A DNA stretch of 53,112 bases, from positions 1 through 53,112 of IMG/VR virus record IMGVR_UViG_3300031454_000236. One strand, written 5' to 3'. The position numbers were made by a program, and so were the translations under genes. Of the stretch, positions 7,511 through 50,908 are shown in pieces. The first letter of the stretch is position 1. Every line of letters starts with the position of its first letter. Source of the DNA: a virus (lineage: Duplodnaviria; Caudoviricetes). Under the pieces are notes generated by a model, which was not told where the DNA came from, did not search any database, and worked only from the letters and a program-made list of their open reading frames with translations.

Positions 7511-7533
7511 TATACGATTGAGGCGGAGGGGCA

Positions 7534-8023: not shown

Positions 8024-8025
8024 AA

Positions 8026-11726: not shown

Positions 11727-11730
11727 GCTC

Positions 11731-25122: not shown

Positions 25123-25198
25123 TGCCGCCCTCCCCTTCCGTGTATGCCCGGCAAGTGCCGGTGAGGAGGGATTATGGATCGTCCTGTCCGCTTGTCAA

Positions 25199-25420: not shown

Positions 25421-28400
25421 GCAACCTCGCTTCTCGCCGCTCCTCGCGCTTCAATTGGTCGACCGTGATCTCCGGCGTCGAGGAGACGATGGTGTAGTTG
25501 GCGATGTGCGTGTCGCCCCCCTTTTCGGAGCGCGGGGACAGCGCCGCCAGCTGATCGGCGTTGAATATCGCCTCCTTGCCGTTCTCCCCGAACGTGTAGG
25601 AGCGCCCGGAGCGCTGGCCGCGCCCGACGATCGGCTCGGTGATCACGCCGCCATCGGCCATGCCGACGATGCCGCGACTATCCCCCCACGCGCCCGCGAT
25701 CCGGTCGCCGGGGTACATGTCTCGCGGGCGCTCGGCGTAATAGGCCGCGCGTGCGCCCGCGTAGGCGGGATCGGTGCCCCACGGGAGGTCGCCGCGCCGC
25801 GTGGCCGCGCGATAGTCGGCGTACATGAAATCGGTCGCCCACACCGGGTCTTCCGCCTGCGCGCGGCTGACGCCGGGATGGGCCACGGTGTAAATCTGGT
25901 ACGGGCCGAAGCTCTGGCCGTTGTCCCCCGCGCCGAACGTCGGACCCCAACCGCCCTCCATGTGGCTGCCCATCAGCATCGCCAGTCCGGTGTAGCTGTC
26001 GTTGCCGACCTTGCCGAGGATGGCGTCCACCACGGTCGAGCCGTTGCCGGTGAACGGCCCCGAGCCGTCGCCCGGCCCCGTCTTGGTCGCGTACTTCCCG
26101 CCCGCGATGTCGCGCAGGAGGTTGTAGGCATCGAATGAGCCGCCGTCACCCGCCGAGGTGATCTCCGGGCCGATACCGATGTGGAGGTGTGGGGCACCCG
26201 TGCCCCCCTTGTAGGCGTTACCGGTGCGACCGACCCAGCCGAGTTGCTGGCCCGTCGCGACCGCCCCGGACACGCTCGCCGGGTCGCGCATATGAGCGTA
26301 GTAGTATTGGAGTCCGTCGTCGCCGTAGACGGTGATGGTGTTGCCGCCGAGCGGGAATTCCATCGGCCCGCTCGCCCGACCGCCACGGGTCGCGACGATG
26401 CGCGACCCCTCCGGGGACATGATGTCGGCGGCGGAGGGCGAGCCGTCCCAATGCGGCCCGAACGAATTTTCGTAACCGGGGACCGGGAAGATGTACTCCC
26501 CGCTCGCCCCGCCTATCGGGGTTTTCGGCGTCGCCGCCTTCAGCATCTTGTCGATCGAGCCGAGCGCCCAATCCTTGACCTTCCCGGCCATCTTCGCGCC
26601 GATGTCGCCGAGCGCGCCCGGCAAACTCAGGTCGCCGAGTCCGACCGCGCCTTTCGCCTGATCGTAGAGCCAGCCCGCGCCCTTCTGCAGCACGCCGAAG
26701 ATGCCGCCGAGCGCGTCCAGTCCGCCCGCGAATCCGGGGACCAGCGCGGGGCCGGATTGCGGCGCGGTGACCACGCCCTGCCGCACCAGCGCCATCGAGT
26801 CGCGGTGGGGGAGGACTTGCGCGCCGCGCGGGAGGTAGGCCAGTTCCGCGCCCGCGCCGCCCGGCCCCTCGCCGACCCAGGCCATCCCGCCGCCCCAGTT
26901 GCGCGTGCCGGTCGCGAGGCCGGGGAGGGAGAACGACGGCGACTGATCCGCTATGCCGCCCGCGCCGAGCCGTTCCGCGATCCAGTTGATGATGCTGCGG
27001 ACCCCGTCCCCGAACTTGCGCACCCGGTCGCCCGCGCCATTGAGCGAATTGATGATCCCGTTGCCGAAGGCGTTGACGATCCCGCCGATGGCGTCCTTTG
27101 CCCCGTTGAAGGGTGACAGCAGCGCGTCTTTCATATTCCCGGCGTTGTCCCAGAGGAGCTTTTTCAGGTCGCCCCACTTGCCGGTGGCCGTGTCATAGAT
27201 GTTCTGCCAGGTGCCGATGAGTGCGTCTTTCGCGGAGGTGATCGGCATGGTGATCCGATCGCGCAGATCGGACCCGGTATCCCACAGCCACTGCCGGACG
27301 CCGTTCCAGGCGTCGATCGCCTTCTGGTAGATATTCGCCCAGGTCGTGTCGAGCATTGCCTTGGCCGCGTCGATCGGCGTGGTCACGCGCGCCTGCATGT
27401 CGCCCGCCGTCTGCAACAGCCAGGAGCGCACCCCATTCCAGGCGTCGGTCGCTTTGGTGTAGATGCTCCCCCAGGCCGTGTCCAGGAGCGCCTTCGCCAC
27501 GTCAATCGGCCCGGTGATGCGCGACTGCATCTCGGCGGCGGTTTGCAGCAGCCAGGAGCGGACGCCGTCCCAGGCACTCGTTGCCTTGGTGTAGATGCTA
27601 TTCCATGTGCCATCGAGCCATGCTTTCGCGGCGTCGATCGGGCCGGTGATTTTGGCTTGCATATCGGCGGCGATCTGCGCGGCGAAATCGCGCACCCCGC
27701 TCCAGGCTTGCGTCGCCTTGGTATAGATGCTATTCCACAGCCCCGTCAGCCAGTCCCGCGCCGTGGTGATACGCGCGGTCAGATCGTCCCGCACGTCGCT
27801 CGCCGCCTGCGTGACCGTCTTCCAGAGGGTCGCCCAGACGCCCGCCGCTTTGGTGTAGGCGCTATCCCACAGGCCGCCGAGCGTGTCGCGGAGGTCCGCG
27901 ATCTTCCCGCCGACCCATGATGCCAGGTCGCCCACCTTGCCTGTGACCCAGTTGTAGAGGTCCGTGGCCTTGTCGAGGCCGTTCCTGGCGATACGGACGA
28001 AGATCGCCAGCAAGAGTGCCTCGGTCTTGGCAAGCTCGATCAGGATAGTCACGCCGAGATTGATCACCGCCTGGACGATCTGCCCGACCATGCTATTCCA
28101 GGCATTCAGCGCGGTCGCCTTGATGTCGGCCCAACGGTCGTTGAGCCAGGAGCGCAGATCGGCGACCTTGCCGGTCACGCCGGACCACAGATCCCCCAGC
28201 GCCCCCGTCACCCCGCGCACGATGCCGTCCCAAATGCCGGAGACGAACGATGACACGGCGGTCCAGCGGTCGCGCCACCAGCCCTGGATGTCGTCGAGCT
28301 TGCCTCGGATGGCCGCGCCGAGCGCCGAGAAGCGGTCCCCGACATCGTTCTTCATGGTGGTCAACGTGTCGCGCACCGCAGTCCCCATGTCGGAGAACTG

Positions 28401-31127
28401 CTGCCCGGTGTCCACCAGGTATTGCGCCACGCGATCGTGGATGGTGGTCCCGATCGCGGAGAATTTGCCGCCGATAGCCGTGCCGATCGCGGCTAACTTG
28501 TCCTGGATCGCCGTCCCCAGATCGGAGAATTGTTGCCCCGTATCGTTCTTGTACTGCGTCAGCCGGTCGCGGATTGTCGTACCGATCTCGGAGAATTTGC
28601 TGCCCACGTACCCGGCGATGGCGTCCCAGGCGGCACCGGCGGCGGCCTGGATACCGCCCCAGATCGCGGCCAGGACGCCGAGCAGGATCGGCCCGGCGGC
28701 GGTGAAAAGCGCGACCAGGCCGTTCCAGGCGATCTGCGCGGCCTGCTGGATGTACGCCCATGCGCCATCCCAATCGCCGCTGATCAGCGCGAGGACGCCG
28801 CGTATGAGGTTACCGATGACGCCGAGGTAGGTGTTGATCGTGTTCTGGATCAGCGCCCACGCCCCGCCGAGCACGGCCACTATCTGATCACCGTGCGCGA
28901 CGAGGAAGCCCGCGACCGCGCCGAAGACGGTTTGCAGCATGCCCCACAGCCATGTCGCCGCCGCGACCACCTTGGTCGAGACGCTCTCCCAGGCGGCGCT
29001 CAGTTGCGGCAGGATGTCGGTCCAGAACTGGGACAGCCGCGCGCCGAGGTCCGCCAAGACCGGCTGTAACCAGGCCCAGACCGCCGCGACCTTGCCCTGG
29101 ATGTCGCCCCAGTTATTGGCCCAGGCCAGCCCGAGCAGGGTGACGACGCCGACGATCGCCGCGATCGCCAGCGTCAGCGGCCCGCCCAGCACGATCACCA
29201 GCGCCGCGACGATCCCGCCGACGCCCTCGATGGCGACGGAGAGGACGCCCCAGATGGCGATCGCGCTCGTGACCCAGCCGACCACGGTGGCGATGATCGA
29301 GAAGGCCGCGAACGCCGCCGCCCCGATCGCGACGACTTTGGCGATCGTGTCCATGTGGTCGCGGATGAACCCCGCGACCTGTTGCACGGCGGGCAAGACC
29401 TGATTGAAGAAGACATCCTTCGCGGTCAGCGCGAAATCGCGCAGGCGCAGCGCGAAATCCCCCACGGCGCGCACGGCGGGCTGCACGGTGTCGTCGCCGA
29501 CCCACTTCCCGGCGAGCGCCTGTTGCACCGTGATGAAGCCGTCGCGCACCAACTGGAAGCCGCCCAGCAGGTCGGACGTGAACTTGGCGACCTTGCCGCT
29601 GGTGCCTGGCCCGAACACGGCATCGAGCGCGGCCAGCAACGGCCCGAACGCGCTGTTGAAGTCGCCGGTCTGGAACGCTTGGAGTAACCCGCCCGCCGCA
29701 TCCTTGACGGGGCCGAGCATGGCGACGGCATCGCGTCCGAAGCCGAGCAGCGCCTTGCCGCCCTCCGTCACCTTCGCCGCGAGGACGGGTCCGTAGGTTT
29801 CGAGCAAGGGGATCGCGGCATTGACGGCCCGTGTCCCCCAGTCGATCACCCCGCGCAGCATCGGTAGGAAAGCCATGCCGATCGTGATCCCGGCGGTTTC
29901 GAGCGAGCCTTTGAGTTGTTCGAGCGAGCCACTGACGTTATCGAGACGATCCGCAGCGACCCCGGCGGCGGTGACATTGCCCATCGCCGCCGCCATCTCG
30001 TTAAACCCCTGCGCCCCGGATTTCGCGAAGATCGCCGCCGCGCGCGAGGCGTCGGAGCCGAACAACGTCTGGAAGGTCGCGAGCTTCTGTTGCTCGGTCA
30101 TGTCCTTGGTCGCGGTCTGCAAGATCCCCGCGACATCGGCCAGCGACTTCATCTTGCCGTTCTGATCGAAAAACGCGCTGCTGATCGTGCCGGTGCTGGT
30201 ATATAACTTGTCGAATTCTTTGCGCTGCTTGTCGGTCCAGGTCGTCGTATCCTGCGAATAACCGAGGTACTGCATCATCCCGCTGTTGAGGGCCGCCCAA
30301 TCATCCCCCGCGACCGCGATCCCCTTCTCGGCGAGGAATTTGAACCCGGCACTCAGGTTATCCGTCTGCAAACCGAGATCGCGGAAGAGCTTCCTTTGCT
30401 CACCCGTCTGCGGGATCAGGTTCGTCAGCATGGTCTTGAGCGACGTGCCGGCGTCCGAACCTTTGATCCCCGCCGCGCCCATGATCGCGATCCCCTGGGC
30501 GAGATCGTCGAACGACAGCCCGGCGACCGCCGCCATCGATCCCGCCGCCGCCATCGAGAATTTGAAATCGGTCACGGAGAGCGAGGAGGCGTTGGCCGCG
30601 CCCGCGACCAGATCGCTGACGTGCGCCATGTCGGAGCCGTTGAGCGAGAAGATATTCATGGCGTTCGCGGCGATCTCGGCGGCGTCGGGGAGGCTCACGC
30701 CGCCGGCCGCGGCGAGGTTGAGGACCGCTTGCGCCGCCCCCCCCATGATGTCGGGGATCTTGACGCCACCCTTGACCAACTCCTCGATCCCAGCCGCCGC
30801 CTCGGAGGCGCTGAAACTGGTGTCCTTGCCGAGTTGCAGGGCCAGGGACGATAACTGCCCCAGTTCGGCGGCGGTCGCGCCGGAGACGGCCTTGACGCCG
30901 CTCATGGTCTTCTCGAATGTGGAGGCCGCCCCGATGCTGCCGGAGAACGCGCCCGTTACGAGTTCTAGCCCTTTCTGGGCGACCGCGAAGCCGACACCGA
31001 GCAGCGCCCCTTTCAGGACCGTGCCGAAGCCACTGGCCGACTTTTCGAGCGTGCCCAACTGCCGCTCGATCCGGTCGGTCGTGCGGAAGAAGTTCTCGGC
31101 GTCGGCCTGGTAGCGAAAACTTATCAC
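25407..31127 (-). CDS. Tail tape measure protein with M23 peptidase and lysozyme-like domains
   Basis: 1906 aa; TP901-type core (AGIKGSDAGTSLK) and Trp-periodic repeats. M23 motifs H...D, YAHM and PHLH. C-terminal E...GDNGQSFGPYQI lysozyme-like segment. Confidence 0.95.
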   Translation of the reverse strand: MISFRYQADAENFFRTTDRIERQLGTLEKSASGFGTVLKGALLGVGFAVAQKGLELVTGAFSGSIGAASTFEKTMSGVKAVSGATAAELGQLSSLALQLGKDTSFSASEAAAGIEELVKGGVKIPDIMGGAAQAVLNLAAAGGVSLPDAAEIAANAMNIFSLNGSDMAHVSDLVAGAANASSLSVTDFKFSMAAAGSMAAVAGLSFDDLAQGIAIMGAAGIKGSDAGTSLKTMLTNLIPQTGEQRKLFRDLGLQTDNLSAGFKFLAEKGIAVAGDDWAALNSGMMQYLGYSQDTTTWTDKQRKEFDKLYTSTGTISSAFFDQNGKMKSLADVAGILQTATKDMTEQQKLATFQTLFGSDASRAAAIFAKSGAQGFNEMAAAMGNVTAAGVAADRLDNVSGSLEQLKGSLETAGITIGMAFLPMLRGVIDWGTRAVNAAIPLLETYGPVLAAKVTEGGKALLGFGRDAVAMLGPVKDAAGGLLQAFQTGDFNSAFGPLLAALDAVFGPGTSGKVAKFTSDLLGGFQLVRDGFITVQQALAGKWVGDDTVQPAVRAVGDFALRLRDFALTAKDVFFNQVLPAVQQVAGFIRDHMDTIAKVVAIGAAAFAAFSIIATVVGWVTSAIAIWGVLSVAIEGVGGIVAALVIVLGGPLTLAIAAIVGVVTLLGLAWANNWGDIQGKVAAVWAWLQPVLADLGARLSQFWTDILPQLSAAWESVSTKVVAAATWLWGMLQTVFGAVAGFLVAHGDQIVAVLGGAWALIQNTINTYLGVIGNLIRGVLALISGDWDGAWAYIQQAAQIAWNGLVALFTAAGPILLGVLAAIWGGIQAAAGAAWDAIAGYVGSKFSEIGTTIRDRLTQYKNDTGQQFSDLGTAIQDKLAAIGTAIGGKFSAIGTTIHDRVAQYLVDTGQQFSDMGTAVRDTLTTMKNDVGDRFSALGAAIRGKLDDIQGWWRDRWTAVSSFVSGIWDGIVRGVTGALGDLWSGVTGKVADLRSWLNDRWADIKATALNAWNSMVGQIVQAVINLGVTILIELAKTEALLLAIFVRIARNGLDKATDLYNWVTGKVGDLASWVGGKIADLRDTLGGLWDSAYTKAAGVWATLWKTVTQAASDVRDDLTARITTARDWLTGLWNSIYTKATQAWSGVRDFAAQIAADMQAKITGPIDAAKAWLDGTWNSIYTKATSAWDGVRSWLLQTAAEMQSRITGPIDVAKALLDTAWGSIYTKATDAWNGVRSWLLQTAGDMQARVTTPIDAAKAMLDTTWANIYQKAIDAWNGVRQWLWDTGSDLRDRITMPITSAKDALIGTWQNIYDTATGKWGDLKKLLWDNAGNMKDALLSPFNGAKDAIGGIVNAFGNGIINSLNGAGDRVRKFGDGVRSIINWIAERLGAGGIADQSPSFSLPGLATGTRNWGGGMAWVGEGPGGAGAELAYLPRGAQVLPHRDSMALVRQGVVTAPQSGPALVPGFAGGLDALGGIFGVLQKGAGWLYDQAKGAVGLGDLSLPGALGDIGAKMAGKVKDWALGSIDKMLKAATPKTPIGGASGEYIFPVPGYENSFGPHWDGSPSAADIMSPEGSRIVATRGGRASGPMEFPLGGNTITVYGDDGLQYYYAHMRDPASVSGAVATGQQLGWVGRTGNAYKGGTGAPHLHIGIGPEITSAGDGGSFDAYNLLRDIAGGKYATKTGPGDGSGPFTGNGSTVVDAILGKVGNDSYTGLAMLMGSHMEGGWGPTFGAGDNGQSFGPYQIYTVAHPGVSRAQAEDPVWATDFMYADYRAATRRGDLPWGTDPAYAGARAAYYAERPRDMYPGDRIAGAWGDSRGIVGMADGGVITEPIVGRGQRSGRSYTFGENGKEAIFNADQLAALSPRSEKGGDTHIANYTIVSSTPEITVDQLKREERREARLRGYR
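25410..25658 (-). repeat. Direct repeat copy B (TMP 3' end)
   Basis: Partner of 17610-17860, offset about 7.8 kb. Confidence 0.92.
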
Positions 31128-35391: not shown

Positions 35392-36501
35392 TCACCCGAT
35401 CAGCCGGATACACGCGACGGCCTCAGGCTCAAGTAATACCGGGAGGGTCGTGCTGTAGCCCTCGGCCTCGATCCCGACCGGCTTCTTGTCCTTAACCCAC
35501 ATGTTGATCACGCGACCCGGCGTGGCCTGCCCCGCCGCGCGCCCGATGGCCTGGTAGCCGAGGGTGTTGTCGAGCGTGACGGTCTCCCCGTTCTCGTAGA
35601 AACGGGTCTCGGTGATGGTAGCGTCGCGCCCGGTAGTGGCGACGAACACCATCACGTCGTTGCGGAGGAAACGGTGCGCTCCGGCATAATCGAAGTACTG
35701 CGCCTCGTAGAGTTCCATCTGCGGCAGTCCATCCGCGAGGAAGATCGCATTGAGTTGGTCGAGCGAGATCAGCGGGGCGGGGGTCGCCTGGATCGCCCCG
35801 CCGGTGGTCACGGTGACGCGCGCCCCGGCTCGGGCCTGCATGTTGCCGTTACGCGCCAGGATGGTCGCGACGCGACGCGAGGTGAAGATACGATTGACGG
35901 TGTAGCCCTTGTCGGTCAGCACCTGCACCTGGGCCACGATGTCCGGATAGGGGTCGTAGGCGTCGTTGCTCCACGTCCCGCCCGCATTGACGCGATGTCC
36001 CGCCGGGTCGGAGTAGGCGAGCGTCTCGGTGTAGCCGTTGTCGCCGGTCATGACGATCGCGGCATCGCCGAGCGCCTGCCAGCGCTGCTTCTCGTTGAGG
36101 TCGAGCAGTGCGCGATTGACGGTCACATCGAGCCAGTTGGTCAGGGACGCGACCGCCTCGATCGAGGGGCGGGCCTGCAAGAGGTCCAGGAAGGCGTCGT
36201 AATCCTCGGCGGTGAACTGGCGCGCGATGTCGGTCTCCGCGAGTTCCACCAGCATCGAGCCGACGATGCTCGAATCGTCCTTGATCTGGGTCGGCGAGTA
36301 GCGCGTGCCGTTGTTGGCGATCACGGTGCGGTAGCGGATGTTGCGCTCCCGGTAGGCGTTCAGCGGCACCAGCCGCTCCGGGAGCAGCGTCGCGCCGAGA
36401 TACTGCCGCGCGGGCGGGCCGAACTGCGCGAGGGGATTGCGGGCGATCGTGGCGACCGTCCCATCCGTCATCATCTGACGAATCAAGGTCAACAAGTCCA
36501 T
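35392..36501 (-). CDS. Major capsid protein (gpE-like)
   Basis: 369 aa after the decoration and scaffold genes; YLGATLLPER, DPYPDI and TTLPVL motifs. Confidence 0.85.
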   Translation of the reverse strand: MDLLTLIRQMMTDGTVATIARNPLAQFGPPARQYLGATLLPERLVPLNAYRERNIRYRTVIANNGTRYSPTQIKDDSSIVGSMLVELAETDIARQFTAEDYDAFLDLLQARPSIEAVASLTNWLDVTVNRALLDLNEKQRWQALGDAAIVMTGDNGYTETLAYSDPAGHRVNAGGTWSNDAYDPYPDIVAQVQVLTDKGYTVNRIFTSRRVATILARNGNMQARAGARVTVTTGGAIQATPAPLISLDQLNAIFLADGLPQMELYEAQYFDYAGAHRFLRNDVMVFVATTGRDATITETRFYENGETVTLDNTLGYQAIGRAAGQATPGRVINMWVKDKKPVGIEAEGYSTTLPVLLEPEAVACIRLIG

Positions 36502-37127
36502 TAAAATGCCCCCTTCGTGCAGACGTAGGTGCTCCGCAGCTTGGCCTGTACCGCCGCCGAGAGCGCGGCGAAGCCGGGGAGGAAATTGTCCTTGACGAGC
36601 GCACCGGGCCGGTAAATCGTGACATCGTTGTTGACGTTCGCGTCGGTCACGTCAAACACGAGGATACGCACTTCGTCATCGGCATCGGCGGCGGGTCCGT
36701 ATGGGGTGTTGGCATCCCGCTCGGCGATCGTCCGTCCCAGGACGGTGCCGCTCTGCACGGTCTTGAAGGCTCCGACAGGGAGGTAGGTCGCGCTGTCGCC
36801 CGCGACGAGCGCGGTCGGCAAGGCGGCGACGACTACGCTGGTCGCGCCCGCCACAGCAGGGGCGGTCGTGCGGGCGAACTTCGCGCCGCCGAAGTCGAGG
36901 ACGGTGCCGCTCGGGATCGGGCCGGTCAGCGCCGCGACGGCGACGGTGGTCGCGCCCGCAACGGCGGGGGCGGTGGTCGTCGCGCGCACGGCGCGGGCAC
37001 CGGCGAATTGCGCGGCGTCGAGCTTCGCCCCGCCGGGGATCAGGTGCTCCCGATCGCCGTTGACGAAATCCCCGATCCACGCGCGCGCCGACGACTGGCC
37101 CGTCGGTTCGGTGACAATGCGTGCCAT
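36501..37127 (-). CDS. Head decoration protein with an inserted beta module
   Basis: LIPGGAKLD...VQSGTVLGR...LVKDNFLP; TAATG coupling to the capsid gene. Confidence 0.72.
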   Translation of the reverse strand: MARIVTEPTGQSSARAWIGDFVNGDREHLIPGGAKLDAAQFAGARAVRATTTAPAVAGATTVAVAALTGPIPSGTVLDFGGAKFARTTAPAVAGATSVVVAALPTALVAGDSATYLPVGAFKTVQSGTVLGRTIAERDANTPYGPAADADDEVRILVFDVTDANVNNDVTIYRPGALVKDNFLPGFAALSAAVQAKLRSTYVCTKGAF

Positions 37128-37139: not shown

Positions 37140-37883
37140 TTACCCGCGCTTGGGCGGGCCTTTGTAGGTACTCGTCACGTAGGACTCAGCGACGTTGACA
37201 GGGCGATGCTCGCCGCTCCCCTGCGCCGGGTAGCGCACGCCGCTCGACTGCTGGCCCTGCTCGCCCGTCGTCACCGCCAGCGCCCGCCCGACGTAGGCGG
37301 GCTGCGTGCCGACCCATGCAGCGATGTCCGCTTGCGCGTCGCCCGCGCCGATCCGATACTTCGTGACGGCCTTGCCGTCCTCCTGCACCTCGTAGGGCGT
37401 GAGTGGCAGGTCGGCGCTGTGGGCGCGCAACGCCTCGTAGTCGTAGCCGTAGCGCTGGGCCGCGTCCCTGAGGGTGCCATCGCGTTCGAGGCTCTTGGCC
37501 TTGCCGCTTGCCTCATCCCCTGCCGCGAGACGAGCCTTGATCTCGTCTGGCGTGCCGAGTGGTTTATAGCCCTCGTAAATTTTGGCGTCGTCGCCAGTCA
37601 GGATCGTCGCGCCCTCCGGCTTCTGGTTCGCGGCGAGCGTGGTGACCTCACCCTGGAGTTCGTCGCGCTTGCGGCGCAGGGCGAAGTTGTCGTTGAGGGC
37701 ATCGGCGAGCTTCTCGGCCATCTTGACGGCGTCGCCGTTGAAGCGATCGACGAGGTCGCTCGCGCGCTCCTTCGTCCGACCATCGTTGCCCCCACCGCCG
37801 CCACCGCCCTCGCCACCGGCACCACCGGCGCTGAGGAAGGTGCGTGCTTCGGCCCAATTGCGCGGCTGCCAGTGGACGAACAT
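37140..37883 (-). CDS. Capsid scaffolding protein
   Basis: Gly-rich N-terminus and coiled-coil; upstream of the decoration and capsid genes. Confidence 0.7.
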   Translation of the reverse strand: MFVHWQPRNWAEARTFLSAGGAGGEGGGGGGGNDGRTKERASDLVDRFNGDAVKMAEKLADALNDNFALRRKRDELQGEVTTLAANQKPEGATILTGDDAKIYEGYKPLGTPDEIKARLAAGDEASGKAKSLERDGTLRDAAQRYGYDYEALRAHSADLPLTPYEVQEDGKAVTKYRIGAGDAQADIAAWVGTQPAYVGRALAVTTGEQGQQSSGVRYPAQGSGEHRPVNVAESYVTSTYKGPPKRG

Positions 37884-37922: not shown

Positions 37923-38028
37923 AAAAAAGGCCCACATCCGGCGACCGTTACGGTCGCGCGAATGTGGGCCGACAAGACCCGAATATGCAGTTGGTACTAC
38001 TCTAGCGCAGCGGTGGATATATTGTCAA
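37923..38028 (-). promoter_or_regulatory. Promoter and terminator leader of the capsid/tail operon
   Basis: TTGACA (38028-38023)-N18-TAGAGT (38004-37999), inside the 3' end of a Com-like gene. Stem GGCCCACAT...ATGTGGGCC (37970-37929) followed by TTTTTT. Confidence 0.75.
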
Positions 38029-38224
38029 GCAGAGTCGTGCGTCGCCCGCACTTGTCGCAGACGACGCGCGCCGGGAGGGACGCGGCAAGGCTGCGCCCCC
38101 GGTGCGCCATGTGAAGCCATCGCGCGCTACGATAACCGAGCATCGCCCCGCACCGGCAGCGCACGGGGGTCGCGCCGGGTTCGGGCGTGGCGGGTGGCAG
38201 CGGGCGCGCGGGCATGGCGCTCAC
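37997..38224 (-). CDS. Com-like zinc-ribbon protein 2
   Basis: VRCRCGAMLG...VVCDKCGRRT. Confidence 0.62.
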   Translation of the reverse strand: MSAMPARPLPPATPEPGATPVRCRCGAMLGYRSARWLHMAHRGRSLAASLPARVVCDKCGRRTTLLDNISTAALE

Positions 38225-39096: not shown

Positions 39097-39915
39097 CTAC
39101 TCAAAACCCGTCAGCGCCGCGATCAGCGCCGCCCCGTCCACGCCGCCCGCTTCGGCGGTGCCGCCGCCCGGTACGCGCGAAAGCAGGCAACGACAGCCCA
39201 CATGCTGCGGGTGGGGCGGCACGGCACCCGGCGCATACGGCCCGCCCCTGGCCCGCAAATCGCATTCGTCGGCGATGGCGTGCCGCCCCGCAACGGTCCA
39301 GGCGATCAGATCGCCCGACCCGCGCGCCGCCGCGATCTGCGCCATGCCACCCGCGCGGTTGACCTCGTGCGTGACCAGTCTGCGCGCCGACGAGAACGCC
39401 TCATCCCCGCGCACCGTCCGACCGGCCACGTCGGGGCGCACGAAGCGCCGCAGCTCGCCCGCCAGTTCGTCCGGGGTGGCACCGCGCGCCAGGCCCGCGT
39501 CGAGCACGGCGGTCAGCCGCGAGCGCGCGTCCTCGCCCGCCAACCAGACACGATCGGAGAGGACCAGCCCGTTCGGATCACGCCATGCCCGCACCGGTTC
39601 CGCCGCGCCTGGCACCCCGCCGCCGGGTGCCGCGACCTGGACCGCCGCGCGCGTCGAGGCCGCGATGAGGTGCGGTACGGTGCGGGGCAGGGCGTAGGCG
39701 GCGGCGGCGGCGGCGGGACTCGCGCCGAACAAGCGGGCGATCGTGTCGCCGAGCCAGGTGAGGATCGCCGCGCGCCCGGTCGGCGTCACGGTGCCGCGCC
39801 TGCCCGCACGGTTGACGAGCGCCGCGAGGCCGGTCGCCACGTCGCCGAGCAGGGCGCTCAGGGCGGCGGCGATCGCGGCGTGTAGCGCGTCCCGACGCTC
39901 GCGCTCGGCGGCCAC
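39097..39915 (-). CDS. Minor head protein (Mu gpF / SPP1 gp7-like)
   Basis: LSDRVW, ARRLVTHEVNRA, C and PHPQHVGCRC motifs; follows the portal gene. Confidence 0.8.
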   Translation of the reverse strand: MAAERERRDALHAAIAAALSALLGDVATGLAALVNRAGRRGTVTPTGRAAILTWLGDTIARLFGASPAAAAAAYALPRTVPHLIAASTRAAVQVAAPGGGVPGAAEPVRAWRDPNGLVLSDRVWLAGEDARSRLTAVLDAGLARGATPDELAGELRRFVRPDVAGRTVRGDEAFSSARRLVTHEVNRAGGMAQIAAARGSGDLIAWTVAGRHAIADECDLRARGGPYAPGAVPPHPQHVGCRCLLSRVPGGGTAEAGGVDGAALIAALTGFE

Positions 39916-39916
39916 G

Positions 39917-41551
39917 CTACGCCCCCTGTCCGGTGAGTTGCGCCGCCAAGATCGCCGCCGGGTCGCCCGGTGCCTGCTGCCCCGCTTGCATCGGCGGTGC
40001 CGTGCGCGCGACCCCCACGAGCGCGACATCCCCGGCCTGCCGCTCGGCCTCGATGCGCCCGATCTCGGCGTCCACGTCATCTTCCCCGAGCCTGGTCAGC
40101 AGCGTTTCCAGCGACAGCCCGCCCGCCTGCCACTGCGTCACGTACTCCGCGCGCTCGTCCGAGGTGAGCGGCCCCGGATCGACCGTGACCGCGAACTGGG
40201 CGCGCAGGTCGGCGTAGCGACCGGGCACGCCGGCCAGCGCCGCCGCGAGCGCGAGCGGCGTCTCGATCAGCCAGCGCCCCAGCCCGTCCAGCGCCACGCG
40301 CGTCAGCCCGAGCGAGGCCGCGAATTCGGCGCGCGCCTGCTTGCGGCTCTCGCCCGACGCCGCCGCATCCCCCGCGATCAGCGCGTGCAACTGGTAGGTC
40401 GCGCCGAGGATCGCCGCGCGGAAGAGCCGATCGGCGACATTGAACGTCTCCACGCTGACCGGTTGCTCGTAATGCAGGCTCGGCGTGGTCATGCCGACCT
40501 GTTCGCCCTTATCGTTGTAAACCGGCACGCCCTGGAGGAAGCGGTCCATCCCCGCGCCGCTCGGCAGCCCCTCGGCGACGAACGCGCGGTCGTTGGGATC
40601 GTCCGTGGGTCGCCAGGGCTGTCCGTCGCTGATCTTGCGGTACGAACCGGGCGGCTGCGCGCCGAGGAAGGTCCGCTCGCGCGATCCCGCGAGGTTGAGG
40701 TTGCGCCCCAGGTTGGTCAGGTTGAGGTTCGCGGCCTGCTGCAACCTGCGGACCTGCGCGTCGATCAGCGGCTGGCGGCGGGCCTCGTACAGCAGCAACC
40801 GCCCGCCGAGATCGAACGCCGCCGCCGCGTCCACGCCGCCCCCCATGACGCGCAGCACGGTCGCGCCGGATTCGTCTAGGTAGGTCGCCTCGACCCACTC
40901 CTCCTGCTGGCGGCGGTAGGCGTAGACGCCGAGTCGCGCCTTGGTATCGTCGTCGGTGACGACCGCGCACGCCTCGCGCGCCGGACTATCCACGTAGAGC
41001 AGGTCGAGCGCGGCGGCGAGGCGGACGACCGGATCGCCGCCCTGCGGGAGCGGCACCAACCCGGACGCCGCGCTGTCGAGCATGAGCAGTCCGCGCGGGA
41101 TGTAGAGCCGGGCGACGGCGCGCTCGGCCAGGAGGAGCGCGGTCGCGGGCTGTTGCAGCCATGGGAGGATGTCGCGCTTGTCCCACCACCCGGTCAGCAG
41201 CGCCTCGGCCTCGGCGATCAGCGCCGCCTCGTCGGTATTCGGCGTCTCGCCCTCCGCCAGTGCGCGGCGCGGGGTGAGTCGCCAGAGCGGCTCGCGGCCC
41301 AGGACGCCCGCCCGGTGCCGCTCGGCGACCTCGCGGACGTGATTGATCGCGATGAAGCCGCGCTCCACGGCGGCGAGGAAGGCGCCGCGCGTGTCGTCGG
41401 TCGGCACCTCGCCAAGCCAGAAGCGTCCGCCCTCGAACATCGAACCGGCGAAGAGGAGTTCGTTATCGGCGGCGGCGTCATCGGCCTTGGGGAGATAGGC
41501 CCGTGCGGCCTGCGGGTCGAGCGCGGCGAATGCGGCGGGGACGATCGGCAT
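39917..41551 (-). CDS. Portal protein
   Basis: 544 aa after the terminase; ASGESR and LSLETLL..LG...VDAEIGRI (SPP1-like portal C-terminus). Confidence 0.85.
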   Translation of the reverse strand: MPIVPAAFAALDPQAARAYLPKADDAAADNELLFAGSMFEGGRFWLGEVPTDDTRGAFLAAVERGFIAINHVREVAERHRAGVLGREPLWRLTPRRALAEGETPNTDEAALIAEAEALLTGWWDKRDILPWLQQPATALLLAERAVARLYIPRGLLMLDSAASGLVPLPQGGDPVVRLAAALDLLYVDSPAREACAVVTDDDTKARLGVYAYRRQQEEWVEATYLDESGATVLRVMGGGVDAAAAFDLGGRLLLYEARRQPLIDAQVRRLQQAANLNLTNLGRNLNLAGSRERTFLGAQPPGSYRKISDGQPWRPTDDPNDRAFVAEGLPSGAGMDRFLQGVPVYNDKGEQVGMTTPSLHYEQPVSVETFNVADRLFRAAILGATYQLHALIAGDAAASGESRKQARAEFAASLGLTRVALDGLGRWLIETPLALAAALAGVPGRYADLRAQFAVTVDPGPLTSDERAEYVTQWQAGGLSLETLLTRLGEDDVDAEIGRIEAERQAGDVALVGVARTAPPMQAGQQAPGDPAAILAAQLTGQGA

Positions 41552-41677: not shown

Positions 41678-42352
41678 ATGCCTACTAAGACTACCACCCC
41701 ACGTATCTGCGAACAATGCGGACGTACATTTCAGGCACTGGTGAGCAGGCGTACACGGTTCTGCAGTCGTATCTGTGCGAATACATCCCGCGCGGGGATT
41801 GCGAATACATCCCGCGCGATCATACGAGAAACCTGCACCTGCCACAGTTGCGACAAACTCTTCCAGGTACACCCAAACGTGATCAAAAGGGGCGGAGGAC
41901 GCTACTGTAGCCATCGTTGCCGCGACCGTGGGAAATGCAAGCCGGCTGCCGAGCGGTTCTGGTCGAAAGTCCGCCGTGGGGACGGATGCTGGGAATGGAT
42001 TGGCGGCTACAATCCCACCGGCTACGGAAGCTTCTGGTACAACGGCCGATCGATCCAGGCGAGTCGCATGGCCTACTTGCTGACGCACGGGACGATCCCC
42101 GACGGACTGTTGGTCTGCCATCACTGTGATACCCCGTCCTGTGTACGCCCCGATCATCTGTTCCTCGGCACCAACGCCGAGAACCAGCACGACTCTGGCG
42201 GGAAGGGCCGCAGGGTGAAACGGCTGACTTTGGCACAACGCGCCGAGATTCGTGGACGCCACGCGGCGGGAGGCATCTCCCAAACCGCGCTCGCACGAGA
42301 GTACGGGGTGTGCCGCACCAGCATCCACCAAGTGCTGAAAGCCTCCTGGTAA
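41678..42352 (+). CDS. HNH homing endonuclease (antisense insertion between terminase and portal)
   Basis: CxxC zinc repeats, RFWSKV...CWEW...GYG, VCHHCDTPSCVRPDHLFLGTNAEN and a C-terminal HTH. Confidence 0.9.
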   Translation: MPTKTTTPRICEQCGRTFQALVSRRTRFCSRICANTSRAGIANTSRAIIRETCTCHSCDKLFQVHPNVIKRGGGRYCSHRCRDRGKCKPAAERFWSKVRRGDGCWEWIGGYNPTGYGSFWYNGRSIQASRMAYLLTHGTIPDGLLVCHHCDTPSCVRPDHLFLGTNAENQHDSGGKGRRVKRLTLAQRAEIRGRHAAGGISQTALAREYGVCRTSIHQVLKASW

Positions 42353-42375: not shown

Positions 42376-43770
42376 CTAGTACCGCCTGGCGATGGCGATA
42401 GCGGGCGGGGGCGGGGGTGGCAAGGGTGGGGTACGGCGGGCGGTGAAGGCCAGGAGGAGCGCCTCGGCGCGGTCGGGGGATACGATACCGCGCCTTTTGG
42501 CATCCTCCTTCTTCTCGATCACGAGGCGACCGCGCACGTCGTAGTGGAACTTCACGCCGACCAACTGGCCAATCGTCTCCTCATCATCGAGGCCATTCAG
42601 CGCGCCGTCTTTGATGACTGCACGCAACGCCCAATAGAGTTCCGCCTTCAGGTTGCCGAACGATCCGTCGTCCCATGCGGGGACGCCCACGTTCACATCC
42701 ACGGCGGGCAGGCCGAGCACGCGCAACTGATCGGCGACTCCGGCCCCGACGCCGACGCTATCGACGCGGATCGTCTTCACCCGCTCGCCGTACTCGCGCG
42801 CGACGCGCGCCACCTGCCCCGTGGTGAAGGTCGTGTCGTGGCCCTTCCAGAATGCTTGTTGCAGGATGTTCGGGCCGCAACGGAGGTAGTAGCCGCTCTC
42901 GTCATCGCCGAAGCGGGCCACGTCGACCCCGATCTCCACCGCGCCGCCCGTGTCCTCCGCCTCGCGCGCCTTCGCCGCCTCGCACCAGGTGAGCGCGATG
43001 AGCGCGTCGGTGTCCTGTTTCGGGAACTCCGCCTTGACGCGCGAGAGGTAGTAGGCGCTCTCCTCGCCGTGCTCGATCCGCTTCTCCTCGGCCCACTGCG
43101 GGGTGATGAGGTAGGGCCGCACGATCCCCTGCCCCTGGAAGTTCGGCGTGTCCTGGGCGGCGATGGTGATGGTGTGGTAGAGGGCGCGCTTGCGCGTGAA
43201 CGCCTCGTAGAAATCGCCCGACGCGTGGATCGGGTTGCCGATCATCAGCTCGCGCGCGAACCCGCTGGAGAGGGTCGAGTCGAGCGCCTGATGCACATTG
43301 GCGTGGAGTCCGCTCGCCTCATCCTTGATCACCAGGATAGACGGGGCGTGGAACCCGGCGAAGCGGTCGGGGTTGGTGTCCGCCGCCTTGAAGCCGAGCG
43401 CGTACCAGCGGTCGCTGATCTCGATCCCGGTGTCCAGCACGCGACCGAGGAGCGGGCGACGGGCCTTGTTGTAGGCGTCGCGGATCTCGCGCCAGAGGAT
43501 GTTGCGGACCTGATTGAAGGTCGGCGCGGTGGAGAGGACGACCGAACCGGGGAAGGCGTGCAGGAACCAGATCGCGATCCGCGCGCTCGTGAAGCTTTTC
43601 GAGACGGAGTGCGCCGCCTTGCACGCGGTGCGCGGGTGGTCGCGCACGCTCTCGGCCAGCTCGATGGCGCGATCGTAGAGGTCCGCGCCCAGGAACTCGG
43701 CGATCCAGCCGCCGGGGTCGCGCTGGGCGCGGGACATCGCCGCGCCGAACGCCGGGTCAAGCACCGCCAT
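42376..43770 (-). CDS. terL: Terminase large subunit
   Basis: Walker A-like AHSVSKS, STAPTFNQV, Walker B VIKDEASG, MIGNP, and nuclease motifs GVDVARFGDD and SPDRAEAL. Confidence 0.93.
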   Translation of the reverse strand: MAVLDPAFGAAMSRAQRDPGGWIAEFLGADLYDRAIELAESVRDHPRTACKAAHSVSKSFTSARIAIWFLHAFPGSVVLSTAPTFNQVRNILWREIRDAYNKARRPLLGRVLDTGIEISDRWYALGFKAADTNPDRFAGFHAPSILVIKDEASGLHANVHQALDSTLSSGFARELMIGNPIHASGDFYEAFTRKRALYHTITIAAQDTPNFQGQGIVRPYLITPQWAEEKRIEHGEESAYYLSRVKAEFPKQDTDALIALTWCEAAKAREAEDTGGAVEIGVDVARFGDDESGYYLRCGPNILQQAFWKGHDTTFTTGQVARVAREYGERVKTIRVDSVGVGAGVADQLRVLGLPAVDVNVGVPAWDDGSFGNLKAELYWALRAVIKDGALNGLDDEETIGQLVGVKFHYDVRGRLVIEKKEDAKRRGIVSPDRAEALLLAFTARRTPPLPPPPPPAIAIARRY

Positions 43771-44362
43771 CACCGGCACCCCAACGCATCATCGCGGCGA
43801 TAAACTCCTGCGACCCGTTGAGTGTCGTGTCCTGCTTCTCCACAATCAGGCCGAGCACCTTCGCCTGATCCATCACCGCCTGCCGCGCCTGGGCCAGCGC
43901 CGCCGCCTTATTGCCCCGGAACTGCGCCGAACCCTTCTCGTCGCGATGCACGCGGATCGTGCGCTGGCTTGCGGGCAGTTCGTAGTTCGGCACCAACGGA
44001 TCATCGAAGAGGACCGCGCGCTCGCACATCTCGTCGAACTCGGCGGCGTCGATCGCCCGGTGGTAAATATCCTGCAACTCAGCGATCTTCCGCGCCCGCA
44101 AGTCCTCGATCTGTGCGCCGGTACGGTCGAGCCACAACTCGCGTAGTCGCTTGATGTCGTTGCGGATCGTCCCCTCGTCCACGCCGAGCGCGGCGGCGAT
44201 CCCGGTGTTCGGCTCGCCCTTCAGGTGGCGACGCGCGACCAGCGGCAGGCGCGCGAGCACGACCGGATCGTGTCGCCAAGGGAGTTGCTTACGCTGGCCT
44301 TTACGCGAGCCGGTTTTCGGAAGCGCCTGTTCGGAAGCGTCGGTGCTCGCCTCGCCCGTCAT
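43757..44362 (-). CDS. terS: Terminase small subunit (HTH)
   Basis: IAAALGVDEGTIRNDIK HTH and AKVLGL; immediately upstream of terL. Confidence 0.72.
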   Translation of the reverse strand: MTGEASTDASEQALPKTGSRKGQRKQLPWRHDPVVLARLPLVARRHLKGEPNTGIAAALGVDEGTIRNDIKRLRELWLDRTGAQIEDLRARKIAELQDIYHRAIDAAEFDEMCERAVLFDDPLVPNYELPASQRTIRVHRDEKGSAQFRGNKAAALAQARQAVMDQAKVLGLIVEKQDTTLNGSQEFIAAMMRWGAGDGGA

Positions 44363-44517: not shown

Positions 44518-44745
44518 TCAGTACGAGTACCGCGCGATGCCCGGCTCCGTCTCGCCGCGCCGCGCCGCCCGGTTGTCCGTGGTCGCCCACCGCGCCTGGC
44601 AGCGGGGACGCCCGCAATAGATCCGGCCCGGCTCCGGGAGGGCATCGCCGCAACGGGCGCACGTCGGCTCCTGGTAGGGCGGCGGCGTGTGGTCGCCGGA
44701 CCCGGCGCGCTCGGCGAACGCGGCGATGATGTAGGGCCGCTGCAT
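44518..44745 (-). CDS. Small zinc-finger protein
   Basis: CARC...YCGRPRC; SD GGGAG; first gene after the leader. Confidence 0.5.
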   Translation of the reverse strand: MQRPYIIAAFAERAGSGDHTPPPYQEPTCARCGDALPEPGRIYCGRPRCQARWATTDNRAARRGETEPGIARYSY

Positions 44746-44757: not shown

Positions 44758-44870
44758 AAACACAGAGACGCCCTCGCCGACTGGAGCCGAAATCCAGCCA
44801 TGCGAGGGCGTCTCAGACACCCGCTCTACTTATGGCAACAATACTAGCAGCGAACGGGGATTATCGTCAA
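44758..44870 (-). promoter_or_regulatory. Promoter and terminator leader of the packaging operon
   Basis: TTGACG (44870-44865)-N18-TAGTAT (44846-44841). 13-bp stem GAGACGCCCTCGC/GCGAGGGCGTCTC (44814-44765) followed by TGTGTTT. Confidence 0.72.
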
Positions 44871-45775
44871 GCGGTCTCTTGCTCGTCCGGCGCGGCTGGT
44901 GACAACCGCTGTGGTTGACTGCCAGATCGGGACCGGTTCTCCTGCCTCGGCAATACCATCTCCTCCCAGGATGGCAGGCGACGGGTGCGCTTACCGCTGT
45001 TGTAGTACTCCAATAGCGCACGACCCACACCGGCACCGCCCCGGACATCCACGATGCCACGCGCGGCGGCGGCGCGTCCGAGTAGATGTGCGGGCGACGT
45101 GACCCGTAGCTTGTCGATGAGCGTCGCATCATCCAAACCATGTGGCGTTGCCCGACGCAACAAGGCGGCAAGGCCCAGCAAGAGGTCAGACTTGAAGGCC
45201 ATGCGATCGCCGGACCAGGCATCGCGCGCGATCAGCAGAACCCGCCGCAGCAGATCGATCCCGGCAACGTTCGCGATGTCCTCCAGCGCGACCACCGCGC
45301 CGATCTTGTTCCAAACCTTACTTGTGGTCGTGTAATCCACCGCCAGTTGCAACGCGGTGAGCACGTCTTCGATAGCCCATGTTGGGGGGTGGCCCTCTTC
45401 AAGACGCGCCTTGTATTGCTGCGCGCGACTCGTGGCAAGTCGATTCCGGTTGGAGTTGAGCCGGGCGAATAACCCGGCCTCGCGGTCATACGATAGGTGC
45501 TTGATGATCGTGCAGGGGATCGGCTGGCGCATCTGCAAACGTCGTTCCGCCAGGAGACGGTGTTGCCCATCGACCACAAAATAGCGCCCGTCCTGACGCA
45601 GAGAGACGACCAGCGGCAACCGCATCAGGGGGTCGTAGTTCGCCGCGATCCGACGAACGCGCATCTCGTTTGCGGGACGCTGATAGCGCAGGTCCAATTC
45701 GAGCACATCAGGATGCAGGATGCCACTATAAACCATCTCACCCGCCTGCAAGTGTTCCTCGATCCGCGTAACCAT
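44867..45775 (-). CDS. ParB/DGQHR-domain protein (DUF6551-like)
   Basis: YQRP...RV..I...LVVS....YFVVDGQHRLLA...EAGLFARLN. Confidence 0.78.
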   Translation of the reverse strand: MVTRIEEHLQAGEMVYSGILHPDVLELDLRYQRPANEMRVRRIAANYDPLMRLPLVVSLRQDGRYFVVDGQHRLLAERRLQMRQPIPCTIIKHLSYDREAGLFARLNSNRNRLATSRAQQYKARLEEGHPPTWAIEDVLTALQLAVDYTTTSKVWNKIGAVVALEDIANVAGIDLLRRVLLIARDAWSGDRMAFKSDLLLGLAALLRRATPHGLDDATLIDKLRVTSPAHLLGRAAAARGIVDVRGGAGVGRALLEYYNSGKRTRRLPSWEEMVLPRQENRSRSGSQPQRLSPAAPDEQETA

Positions 45776-45785: not shown

Positions 45786-45929
45786 CTATGCTGCTAACTT
45801 TACATTCCGCCGCCCGCACTCGGGGCAGCGGCGCACAAGTGGCATCCCGCTCTTGTTCCCGTTCGGTTCGTGTAGGGTGCCATTCACGATCTGCCCCAAC
45901 ACCCGCCCGCAGTGCGAGCACCGAAACAT
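45786..45929 (-). CDS. Com-like zinc-ribbon protein 3
   Basis: MFRCSHCGRVLG...RRCPECGRRN; SD GGAGAGG. Confidence 0.65.
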   Translation of the reverse strand: MFRCSHCGRVLGQIVNGTLHEPNGNKSGMPLVRRCPECGRRNVKLAA

Positions 45930-46078
45930 AACGAGCCTCTCCGGAGAACTTGATCGGGTATGTTTCCCGCTCAAGATCGTGTTTCCCATGCTATAATTAG
46001 GGCAACAAGAAGCCACGGCGCGGGGTCACGTCCCGCCCGTGGCATGGCACTCACCGAACCTGCAAGGAGGTTCCGATC

Positions 46079-46663
46079 ATGCCCGCCCATCATAGCATAT
46101 GCGCCCAATGTGCCATGCCCCTCAATGACCCGAAGCATCCGAAACGGAAATACTGTTCCGCGACATGTCTCCTTGCGGCACGCCGCACCAATATTCCCAA
46201 GCCGTGTGCGATCTGCGGCACTGTCTTCGTCGGGGAACATGCGAGAAATCGCCATTGCTCTATCACTTGTGGGCAGATCGCAAGAGTGCGACAACTCTAT
46301 GCGCCATCGTGGGAAGAGCGTCTGTGGTCGAAAGTTGAGAAAACCGATTCGTGCTGACTGTGGACAGGACGCACGAACGATCAAGGATACGGCACGTTGC
46401 ACGTAGACAGACAAAAAGGGAAACACTATGTCCACCGCCTTTCGTGGGAATTGGCACGCGGACCGATTCCGCATGGCCTGTTCGTCTGTCATAACTGCCC
46501 TGGTGGCGACAATCCGCGTTGCGTAAACCCCGAACACCTTTGGCTTGGGACGAATCGTGAGAATATTCATGATGCTCAGGCAAAGGGTACGCTCGCCACA
46601 GGCGAACGGCACGGATCGCGCACCCACCCAGAACGATTGCGGCGAGGTAAACGAGCCGCATGA
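46079..46663 (+). pseudogene. HNH homing endonuclease interrupted by one in-frame TGA
   Basis: SKVEKTDSC*LWTG...GYG...HRLSW...VCHNC...NPRCVNPEHL. The TGA at 46355-46357 sits where the paralog at 41678 has Trp (CWEW). Confidence 0.85.
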
Positions 46664-49707: not shown

Positions 49708-50528
49708 CAGTCGATCACCCTGCGCTGTGCGGCGACGGCGGGATGGTTCGAGGGCCGTGCATGGGGGATCACCGTCTCATCCTCCCACCGCCGCTGGTTG
49801 AGCCAGGTCGCGGGCATCGGGATAAATCTGCCCGCCTCTTTCTGCCACTCGCCCCCCTGCAACTGCCGGGCGATGGCGTCGAGCATCGCCGCGACGATCT
49901 CCGGGTCCGGTCTGGCCCGCTGCCACCAGCGCACGGCATCGGCTTTGGCCTGACGCCGGGGGTAGGCCCGCCAGAAGCGATCGAACTGCTCCTGTTGCGC
50001 CTGGCTCAACTCGTGTCGCCGCAACGGGGTCGGTTCCCGCGCCCCCTGGGGGGTAAGGGGGGACTCGTTCTCTTCTACTCCCTTCTCTTCTCTTCCTTTC
50101 TCTTCCTTTCTACTAGGCGTGATAGCTACGCTATGAATCTCCGATGGTTCCTCGAATGATCGTCGAATGATCGTCGAATCCTCTTGATCATCGGGCGGTC
50201 CAGGAAGAATGCTCGCCGATGGTTTGTCGATTCTTTGCCATTGCCGGTAGTTGCGGAAGGCGATGTAGGTGCGCCCCTCGACCTCGTAGCGGATCAGCTG
50301 GCGCATCGCCCCCACCACGGCATCGATGTCCTCGGCGATCTCGCCGGTCGGCACCGCCGAATAGAGCGTGGGCAGGATCAGTCGCAGCGCGGCGGGCGAG
50401 GCTTTCAGCCGCCCATCATCATCGGCATTGGAGAACAGTCCGATATAGAGCAACTGTTGTCGGGGAGACAACTCAGCCATCCCCTCATCGGTCCAAATGC
50501 TGGGGTCTATCATTCGCTTACGCGCCAT
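49707..50528 (-). CDS. Phage replication initiator (O/DnaD-like)
   Basis: MARKRMIDPSIW...LFSNADDDGR, FDRFWRAYPRR and FIPMPATWLNQRRWED. Confidence 0.85.
   Translation of the reverse strand: MARKRMIDPSIWTDEGMAELSPRQQLLYIGLFSNADDDGRLKASPAALRLILPTLYSAVPTGEIAEDIDAVVGAMRQLIRYEVEGRTYIAFRNYRQWQRIDKPSASILPGPPDDQEDSTIIRRSFEEPSEIHSVAITPSRKEEKGREEKGVEENESPLTPQGAREPTPLRRHELSQAQQEQFDRFWRAYPRRQAKADAVRWWQRARPDPEIVAAMLDAIARQLQGGEWQKEAGRFIPMPATWLNQRRWEDETVIPHARPSNHPAVAAQRRVID
50070..50182. repeat. Putative replication origin inside the initiator gene
   Basis: Three tandem 11-bp iterons (C/G)TCGAAT(GA/CC)T at 50150-50182, next to a purine/pyrimidine-asymmetric tract (50070-50112). Confidence 0.6.
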
Positions 50529-50888
50529 TTACGACCGTCCTTTCCGGCACATGCCCTCATGCCGACAGTCGGGCAGCCGGTGATAGAGCGTTTGATAGGC
50601 GCAGTCGTAAGCCGCCGCAGTCCGCAGCGCATCGTCGTCCTGATTCGCGTAGGAGCCGATGATGTCGCAGAGGGTAAACTTGAAGCCCGCTCGCCCGTAC
50701 CACCAGTGGTTCGCGCAGAAGTCGGCGGTCCCGCGCCCGACGCTCTCGATGGCGAGGCGCAGTGCCGCGAGCCGTTCGTCGCGCGCTTCCAGTTCGGCGT
50801 AGCTGAGGCGCTTACCGCTCGGGTTGGTGTCCCGCTCGGTCGGGTGCGGTCGGTGGGGTGGCACATCGGCCATGATGATCAGCGGCAT
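50529..50888 (-). CDS. Hypothetical protein; first gene of the replication operon
   Basis: SD GGGAGG; FCAN..WYG...AYDCAYQTLY..LPDCRH. Confidence 0.6.
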   Translation of the reverse strand: MPLIIMADVPPHRPHPTERDTNPSGKRLSYAELEARDERLAALRLAIESVGRGTADFCANHWWYGRAGFKFTLCDIIGSYANQDDDALRTAAAYDCAYQTLYHRLPDCRHEGMCRKGRS

Positions 50889-50908
50889 GACGCGCACCTC
50901 CCGTACGC

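Follow-up and report, generated by a model that had tools for sequence, protein, structure and literature searches.

The packaging, capsid and lysis modules of a provirus from a probable Chloroflexota host are each headed by a sigma70-like promoter; a strong hairpin ending in a T-rich tail comes within ~100 nt downstream of it, and the module's first gene after that (promoters at 38028, 44870 and 5871, all on the minus strand; Table 1). As judged from the DNA alone, this promoter-terminator architecture is real and conserved, and is a multi-cassette form of a known control. It suggests that the packaging, capsid and lysis genes need a read-through factor. Our preferred reading, held tentatively and as a possibility, is that the late genes are gated by promoter-proximal terminators, in a manner like that of lambda PR'-tR', and released through some factor.

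The window analysed here is a whole IMG/VR provirus record of 53,112 bp, with an estimated completeness of ~72% and a G+C content of 67%. Almost all of its genes are on the minus strand. Isolated phages provided no nucleotide match to the window, and their best protein matches are at most 29% identical for the capsid protein and at most 38% for TerL; the phage thus has no characterised close relative. A Chloroflexota host is probable, because the relatives of the capsid protein include Herpetosiphon prophages and a Chloroflexia MAG. The first gene after the capsid leader is labelled as a putative scaffold gene from its position only.

Table 1. Genes, promoters and leader elements of the window, in order of position.
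Feature	Position	Strand	Remarks
Integrase	1-936	+	
Peptidase region	2054-4410	-	
Lysis cassette	5871-5753	-	hairpin 5802-5765 (-31.7 kcal/mol), tail TTTGTTGTATTT 5764-5753, gene start 5731
Lysis promoter	5871-5843	-	TTGACG-17-TACTAT
Seven promoter pattern matches	5871, 7472, 18372, 38028, 44870, 51107; 21950	-; + (21950)	
Dit and Tal	10569-12726	-	
Tail-tip leader	18372-18254	-	83-nt hairpin 18336-18254, ending 3 nt before ATG 18250
Tail-tip promoter	18372-18343	-	TTGACA-18-TATCCT
Eighth promoter	25198-25171	-	TTGACA-16-CATAAT; directly after Com-like gene 25199-25420
Com-like gene	25199-25420	-	Pfam Zn_ribbon_Com PF10122, 26-26.5 bits (cut-off 22.9); CxxC...CxxxxC
Tail tube, chaperone, tape measure	25407-31127	-	
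Major capsid gene	35392-36501	-	PHROG 29, Pfam Phage_cap_E
Gene between scaffold and major capsid	36501-37127	-	
Putative scaffold gene	37140-37883	-	first after capsid leader; 70% identical homologue in G004
Mini-hairpin CTCCC-AGG-GGGAG	37898-37886	-	encloses Shine-Dalgarno sequence, before ATG 37883
Small GC hairpin CCGGC-ATG-GCCGG	37917-37905	-	directly after capsid T tract
Capsid terminator-like element	37970-37923	-	42-nt hairpin 37970-37929 (-36 kcal/mol), T6 37928-37923
Capsid promoter (P_capsid)	38028-37999	-	TTGACA-18-TAGAGT; -35 38028-38023, -10 38004-37999
Zinc-ribbon ORF, 75 aa	37997-38224	-	CxC...CxxC; GTG start overlaps stop of upstream gene (GTGA)
Head morphogenesis gene	39097-40080	-	
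Portal-sized ORF	39917-41551	-	named from size and position; without family match
Terminator-like hairpin, T-rich tail	41640-41611	-	between TerL and portal
TerL	42376-43779	-	PHROG 2
HTH/TerS-like gene	43757-44362	-	
First ORF after packaging leader, 75 aa	44518-44745	-	Cys-rich; precedes HTH/TerS-like gene and TerL
Packaging cassette	44870-44757	-	hairpin 44814-44765 (-39.7 kcal/mol), tail TGTGTTTG 44764-44757
Packaging promoter	44870-44841	-	TTGACG-18-TAGTAT
ParB/DUF6551-like gene	44867-45775	-	
Com-like gene, 48 aa from ATG	45786-45932 (ORF 45786-46016)	-	CxxC...CxxC
Further terminator-like hairpin in late region	~46040-46012	-	
Primase-helicase and replication initiator	47941-50528	-	
Best-scoring promoter	51107-51078	-	TTGACA-18-TACAAT

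The window also exhibits several repeats and genes on the opposite strand. Positions 17616-17865 and 25414-25663 form a 250-nt direct repeat (91% identity), by which gene 17606-18250 ends in a duplicate of the tape-measure gene's 3' end. The two copies bracket a segment of 7.8 kb with the Com-like gene 25199, LAGLIDADG, T5orf172/MUG113-domain and Arc-like genes and plus-strand ORFs, which looks like an insertion or a recombination scar. Within the tape-measure gene, a 132-nt periodic repeat occurs in five to seven copies (27300-27870). Opposite-strand genes include an IS605-family TnpB/Cas12f-like gene (12810-13979, +) with OrfB_IS605 and TNB domains among the tail genes, and an HNH_3 homing-endonuclease gene (41678-42352, +) between TerL and the portal. 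The ~82 nt upstream of the latter recur with 73% identity at 45981-46061, before an ORF at 46079-46357 (+); this repeat comprises a -10 element (TGnTATACT or TGnTATAAT), a hairpin and a ribosome-binding site.

Sigma70-like promoters had been predicted before the lysis, tail-tip, capsid and packaging modules, and a pattern count agrees with this. The pattern TTGACR-N16-19-TANNNT occurs seven times in the window against 0.39 expected, a number reached in none of 100 shuffles. The promoters at 7472 (-), 21950 (+), 25198 (-) and 51107 (-) are additions to those of the original prediction. The capsid promoter is indeed embedded in the 3' end of a zinc-ribbon gene: both its -35 and its -10 hexamers fall within ORF 37997-38224, the stop codon of which occupies 37999-37997. 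As to the added promoters, a long structured region comes after the one at 51107-51078, and the sole ORF there (50529-51107, -) has no family match. The promoter at 7472 diverges from a plus-strand Cro/CI-type HTH gene (7534-7758), after which a GIY-YIG gene and an HTH_17 gene are found, and region 7444-8612 may be a regulatory switch region; the leader at 7472 contains a hairpin without a T tract. The leader after the promoter at 25198 folds at chance level (z -0.48).

The leaders at the four module heads were all found to be structured, as predicted, with z values against shuffles of -3.61 (capsid), -4.98 (lysis), -3.32 (tail-tip) and -4.15 (packaging). The strong capsid hairpin lies ~30 nt downstream of P_capsid. 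A GC-rich hairpin followed by a T tract, the feature of intrinsic terminators, is canonical in the capsid and lysis leaders. It is weak in the packaging leader, where the tail is merely TGTGTTTG and its homologues read TTTTATGG (G004) and CTGTTTTC (L245). The tail-tip leader, listed in the original prediction among the structured leaders, possesses neither a T tract nor a clear Shine-Dalgarno sequence; its hairpin stops 3 nt short of the start codon, with no T tract, and so has the look of a hairpin that blocks translation rather than of a terminator. Structure buries the ribosome-binding region in both the capsid and the tail-tip leaders. By eye, the early transcribed region is A/T-rich with a recurrent (A/G)ATA before GGG or AGG. 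The leaders of three non-late plus-strand genes exhibit 5' hairpins as well, without sense-strand T tracts. Rfam covariance models gave no match at gathering score over the whole window, and on the leaders the best hits were sub-threshold generic hairpins of 12-19 bits against cut-offs of at least 31 bits. The product of the ORF following the packaging leader has a CxxC...YCxxxxC arrangement that is conserved in L245 (4898-5125), and would be a fourth small putative zinc-binding protein of the phage.

With the capsid protein as bait we obtained 38 related loci, in 36 of which the region before the capsid gene is available. Twelve of these 36 have, 1.3-1.7 kb ahead of the major capsid gene, a strong hairpin with four or more T directly after it; the twelve (L006, L007, L011, L012, L013, L015, L016, L018, L019, L020, L022 and L023, the first four being the same contigs as L002-L005) were selected by this combination. 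Their hairpins have 13-23 pairs and energies of -22 to -39 kcal/mol (z -2.9 to -8.8), with differing stem sequences. In 19 of the remaining loci, the Herpetosiphon prophages among them, a scan that did not require a T tract revealed, by eye, no intergenic leader. The distance from T tract to ribosome-binding site is 17-52 nt in all 13 capsid leaders (the window and the twelve), too short a stretch for a promoter to fit in before the scaffold start. Thus, capsid expression would have to cross the terminator. A strict promoter lies 5' of the terminator in five of the 13 (window, L006, L007, L011 and L012), as it does in L098 and L124, which are outside the 13. No canonical promoter was found in the other eight, so that the terminator is better conserved than the promoter. 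Three of these eight (L013, L016 and L022) have TTGAC just 7-8 nt upstream of a TA(T/C)ACT -10-like hexamer, instead of the usual 17 nt; such a spacing may reflect another class of promoter or a site bound by a protein.

The conservation extends to base pairing. The 13-mer CTCCCAGGGGGAG is invariant in the aligned capsid leaders, and a metagenome scan with the 13-mer plus ATGT gave 105 matches, with a scaffold relative in two of the 80 fetched (L098 and L124). The covariation alignment consists of L002, L003, L004, L098 and L124; L004 and L098 are nearly identical, so that it effectively holds four sequences. It leaves out the window leader, which lacks the relatives' short upstream hairpin and was misaligned by MAFFT. 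RNAalifold proposed 42 pairs for the five leaders, 16 of them changed on both sides, with 13 of the 42 being artefacts (nine involving the untranscribed -35 region and four the spacer), three of the 16 included. Compensatory changes occur in 11 of the 17 terminator pairs of this five-leader alignment. The apical loop TATG(A) is constant in four distinct capsid leaders, the stems of which vary. The mini-hairpin around the Shine-Dalgarno sequence is identical in the window, L002, L003, L004, L098 and L124, and has counterparts in L013 (GTCTC-AAG-GAGAC) and L018 (GACTC-AAG-GAGTC). A small GC hairpin after the T tract was seen by eye in L002, L003, L004, L005, L016, L018-20, L022 and L124, with a compensatory change at two of its pairs. 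Covariation is present across relatives, and the original idea that a promoter and then a terminator gate the late modules is supported by the conserved order and by the lack of room for a promoter after the terminator.

The packaging leader has homologues with changed base pairs in G004 and L245, next to different genes. The G004 contig revealed no homologue of the window TerL or TerS; a different TerL-sized ORF follows its packaging leader, and the genes upstream of its promoter differ too. In L245 an ORF homologous to 44518-44745 follows the leader. G003 exhibits a matching promoter-terminator layout of unrelated sequence before its TerS, the leader as a whole folding no better than shuffles (z -0.5), and in G002 no terminator precedes TerS and a Com-like gene is lacking. 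A search with TerS as bait gave only two records, both already among the relatives. For the lysis leader, the upstream gene 5875-6447 was used, and the first 30 loci were examined among the best 80 of 376 relatives (33-47% identical). After this homologue, none of the 30 loci, which are from unrelated phages, has a promoter and six have a terminator-like site; close relatives were not found, and these loci serve as a negative control only.

The original prediction further proposed, for the lysis, capsid and packaging leaders, an alternative hairpin overlapping the terminator's 5' arm. The 40 nt upstream were folded with this arm, and so were 200 shuffled versions of these 40 nt for comparison. 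The pairings do exist, but as many arm bases were paired by 41% (capsid), 38% (lysis) and 50% (packaging) of the shuffles, and none of the 17 leaders tested fell below 9% (range 9-100%). Such arm pairings are expected by chance in GC-rich sequence. An attenuator with alternative terminator and antiterminator folds is accordingly not supported. A separate short hairpin just 5' of the terminator, absent from the window capsid leader, recurs in relatives; for five leaders, a fold of equal quality is reached by 8% of shuffles or fewer.

The sequence elements, their order, their conservation and their covariation are seen directly; from these we infer termination, regulated read-through and a factor. 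In the preferred, gated reading, the promoters would fire and most transcripts would stop as RNAs of ~60-110 nt, until a phage factor, either a protein or a cis-acting RNA, renders RNA polymerase terminator-resistant and the late genes are made. Further hairpins, absent from the original prediction, may add to the barrier. The one at 41640-41611, with its T-rich tail, lies between TerL and the portal, so that portal expression would need read-through too; on the plus strand the same positions are the 5' leader of the HNH endonuclease gene. Another is found at ~46040-46012. As for the factor, a Pfam comparison of 78 ORFs (E <= 0.01) yielded no family of the Q, N, sigma or NusG-like kind, which agrees with the earlier statement that no Q or sigma gene is visible, and a PHROG comparison of 51 ORFs yielded no antiterminator or sigma family. 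Since the record is ~72% complete, the regulator may be located outside it. We counted against the gated reading the lack of an antiterminator gene, the eight of 13 capsid leaders without a promoter, the weak packaging tail, the tail-tip leader without T tract, the G003 leader (z -0.5) and the hairpins in the three non-late plus-strand leaders.

The main rival takes the hairpins to be constitutive and partly leaky terminators or insulators with a second function in the processing or stabilising of RNA. The message upstream of each hairpin would be ended and protected by it, cleavage would take place in the U-rich stretch between two hairpins, and the 5' end of the capsid message would be shielded by the small GC hairpin; a dedicated read-through factor would be unnecessary. 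The succession of terminator hairpin, U-rich single strand and GC hairpin, seen by eye in the window and ~10 relatives, fits a processing or stabilising site as well. The same reading accommodates the eight capsid leaders without a canonical promoter, the 5' hairpins of plus-strand genes without sense-strand T tracts, and the lack of an antiterminator gene among the 78 ORFs. However, hairpins of -30 to -40 kcal/mol with at least T6 are expected to terminate efficiently, and the capsid genes, whose expression has to be highest, would then be starved. Moreover, a promoter before its own terminator is the opposite of a simple insulator, and this arrangement recurs in at least seven phages. We regard this alternative as rather unlikely, while deserving serious attention.

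In the original prediction the factor was sought among three Com-like zinc-ribbon genes. All three are real genes, but just 25199-25420 passes the Pfam Com model, which matches neither 37997-38224 nor 45786-46016; these two are linked to the family through hhalign, with probabilities of 89% for 37997 against 45786, 67% (marginal) for 45786 against 25199 and 5.7% for 37997 against 25199. Genes 37997 and 45786 thus appear related, as paralogues. Gene 25199-25420 also matches PHROG 6417 ("translational regulator") and has no meaningful match among solved structures (best E 0.53). ORF 37997-38224, without Pfam or PHROG match, has two homologues (83% and 78% identity) with conserved cysteines. Gene 45786 lies ~0.9 kb upstream of the packaging promoter, with the ParB-like gene in between, and its homologues in G004 (58% identity, tblastn) and L055/L245 (80%) are also upstream of the homologous packaging leader. 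The other matches to the Com-like baits were L058, in which the contig ends at the gene, and the unrelated L056, L057 and L247. In L055 (the L245 record), a non-coding stretch of ~400 nt (3334-3750) separates the packaging promoter from the Com-like operon; it contains three or more GC-rich hairpins that resemble one another and have loops of the GTGA type, such as GCCCGCAGCGG-CGTGATAA-CCGCTGCGGGC.

According to this second alternative, Com-like proteins would be the trans factor, binding leader RNA beside or within the hairpins and thereby blocking terminator formation or freeing a sequestered ribosome-binding site. The position of the genes argues for it: 37997 and 25199 are directly upstream of a promoter and leader, and a Com-like gene precedes the packaging leader in all four phages with a visible junction, at 0 nt (G003), 0.9 kb (window), 1.6 kb (L245) and 1.7 kb (G004), despite differing intervening genes. 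These four phages are related, however, and common descent rather than function may account for the synteny. A Com-like ORF was found within 3.5 kb of the capsid gene in none of the 12 capsid-leader relatives, and the complete relative G001 has the leaders and no Com-like gene by Pfam or by a custom HMM. This HMM, built from nine Com-like proteins and run on 43 sources including the 12 relatives (3.5 kb on either side), gave no new member. Upstream of the promoter, a homologue of 37997 is absent in L002-L004 and marginal in L005 (E 0.009, 31 aa). Co-occurrence is seen at the packaging junction and not at the capsid leader of these relatives, and the Com-family antitermination cascade as first put forward is not supported beyond synteny. 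PMC6483171 describes Mu Com as an activator of translation; the protein binds a short hairpin with CC(N)2-3GAG in the loop, next to the hairpin hiding the mom start. The hairpin just 5' of the terminator in relatives and the buried ribosome-binding regions of the capsid and tail-tip leaders are in line with such binding. Yet the loop motif is not evident by eye in the short hairpins, Mu Com activates translation of an adjacent gene and is not an antiterminator, and gene 45786 with its ParB/DndB-like neighbour resembles a plain com-mom-type pair. The link between Com-like genes and leaders is a lead with mixed evidence, and the zinc-ribbon genes are weak candidates for the read-through factor. 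We consider it improbable that they are the trans factor, and more improbable still that the family constitutes a sequence-specific RNA-binding late switch in which each paralogue recognises the leader that lies after its own gene and combines terminator suppression with unmasking of the ribosome-binding site.

Finally, the cassettes could be small-RNA genes (promoter, 60-110 nt, terminator) acting in trans, with downstream expression as incidental read-through, to which the geometry and the constant apical loop in capsid leaders of varying stems would correspond, but the position before each module's first gene is conserved and the sequence is not, and there is no Rfam family match, which makes this reading highly improbable.

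Late-gene control is understood for just a few model phages, and we know of no study of it in Chloroflexota phages. A conserved promoter-terminator arrangement at three module heads, without a recognisable Q, N or sigma protein, predicts an antitermination factor, protein or RNA, and the leaders of ~110 nt are short and defined substrates for testing. If the Com-like proteins were this factor, a widespread and largely uncharacterised family of small proteins would gain a role additional to that in Mu com-mom, the single case; if the Com-like switch were true, it would be a protein-dependent, multi-cassette late switch unlike the Q, N or Ogr-type activators. If the hairpins are leaky terminators or RNA stabilisers, the arrangement is ordinary operon architecture.

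Among known systems, HK022 put and the Tn916 antitermination element are reportedly cis-acting RNA antiterminators of mobile elements. They resemble the window in that a mobile element has a structured RNA shortly after a promoter, and the relatives mostly have a short hairpin and then a larger one; in contrast, the large hairpin here is the terminator itself, and no sequence or Rfam similarity was found. The late region of T7 possesses intercistronic RNase III and stabiliser hairpins. These are likewise long and irregular (lower stem, internal loop, apical stem) and lie at late module boundaries, whereas the window hairpins have T tracts after them and promoters before them. With Mu com-mom the window shares a small C4 zinc-ribbon gene immediately upstream of a leader hairpin that buries translation signals, one such gene scoring above the PF10122 cut-off. 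It differs in that its leaders also have terminators and promoters of their own, in that three genes, two of which fail Pfam Com, stand against the one com of Mu, and in that the Com loop motif, as given in PMC6483171, was not seen by eye. The lambda PR'/tR'/Q system has one cassette against at least three here (packaging, capsid and lysis), and no Q-family protein was found in the window, the relatives of which are in Chloroflexota genomes. In both, a near-consensus host-type promoter and an intrinsic terminator within ~100 nt stand ahead of long late operons with further terminators, through which read-through would be required.
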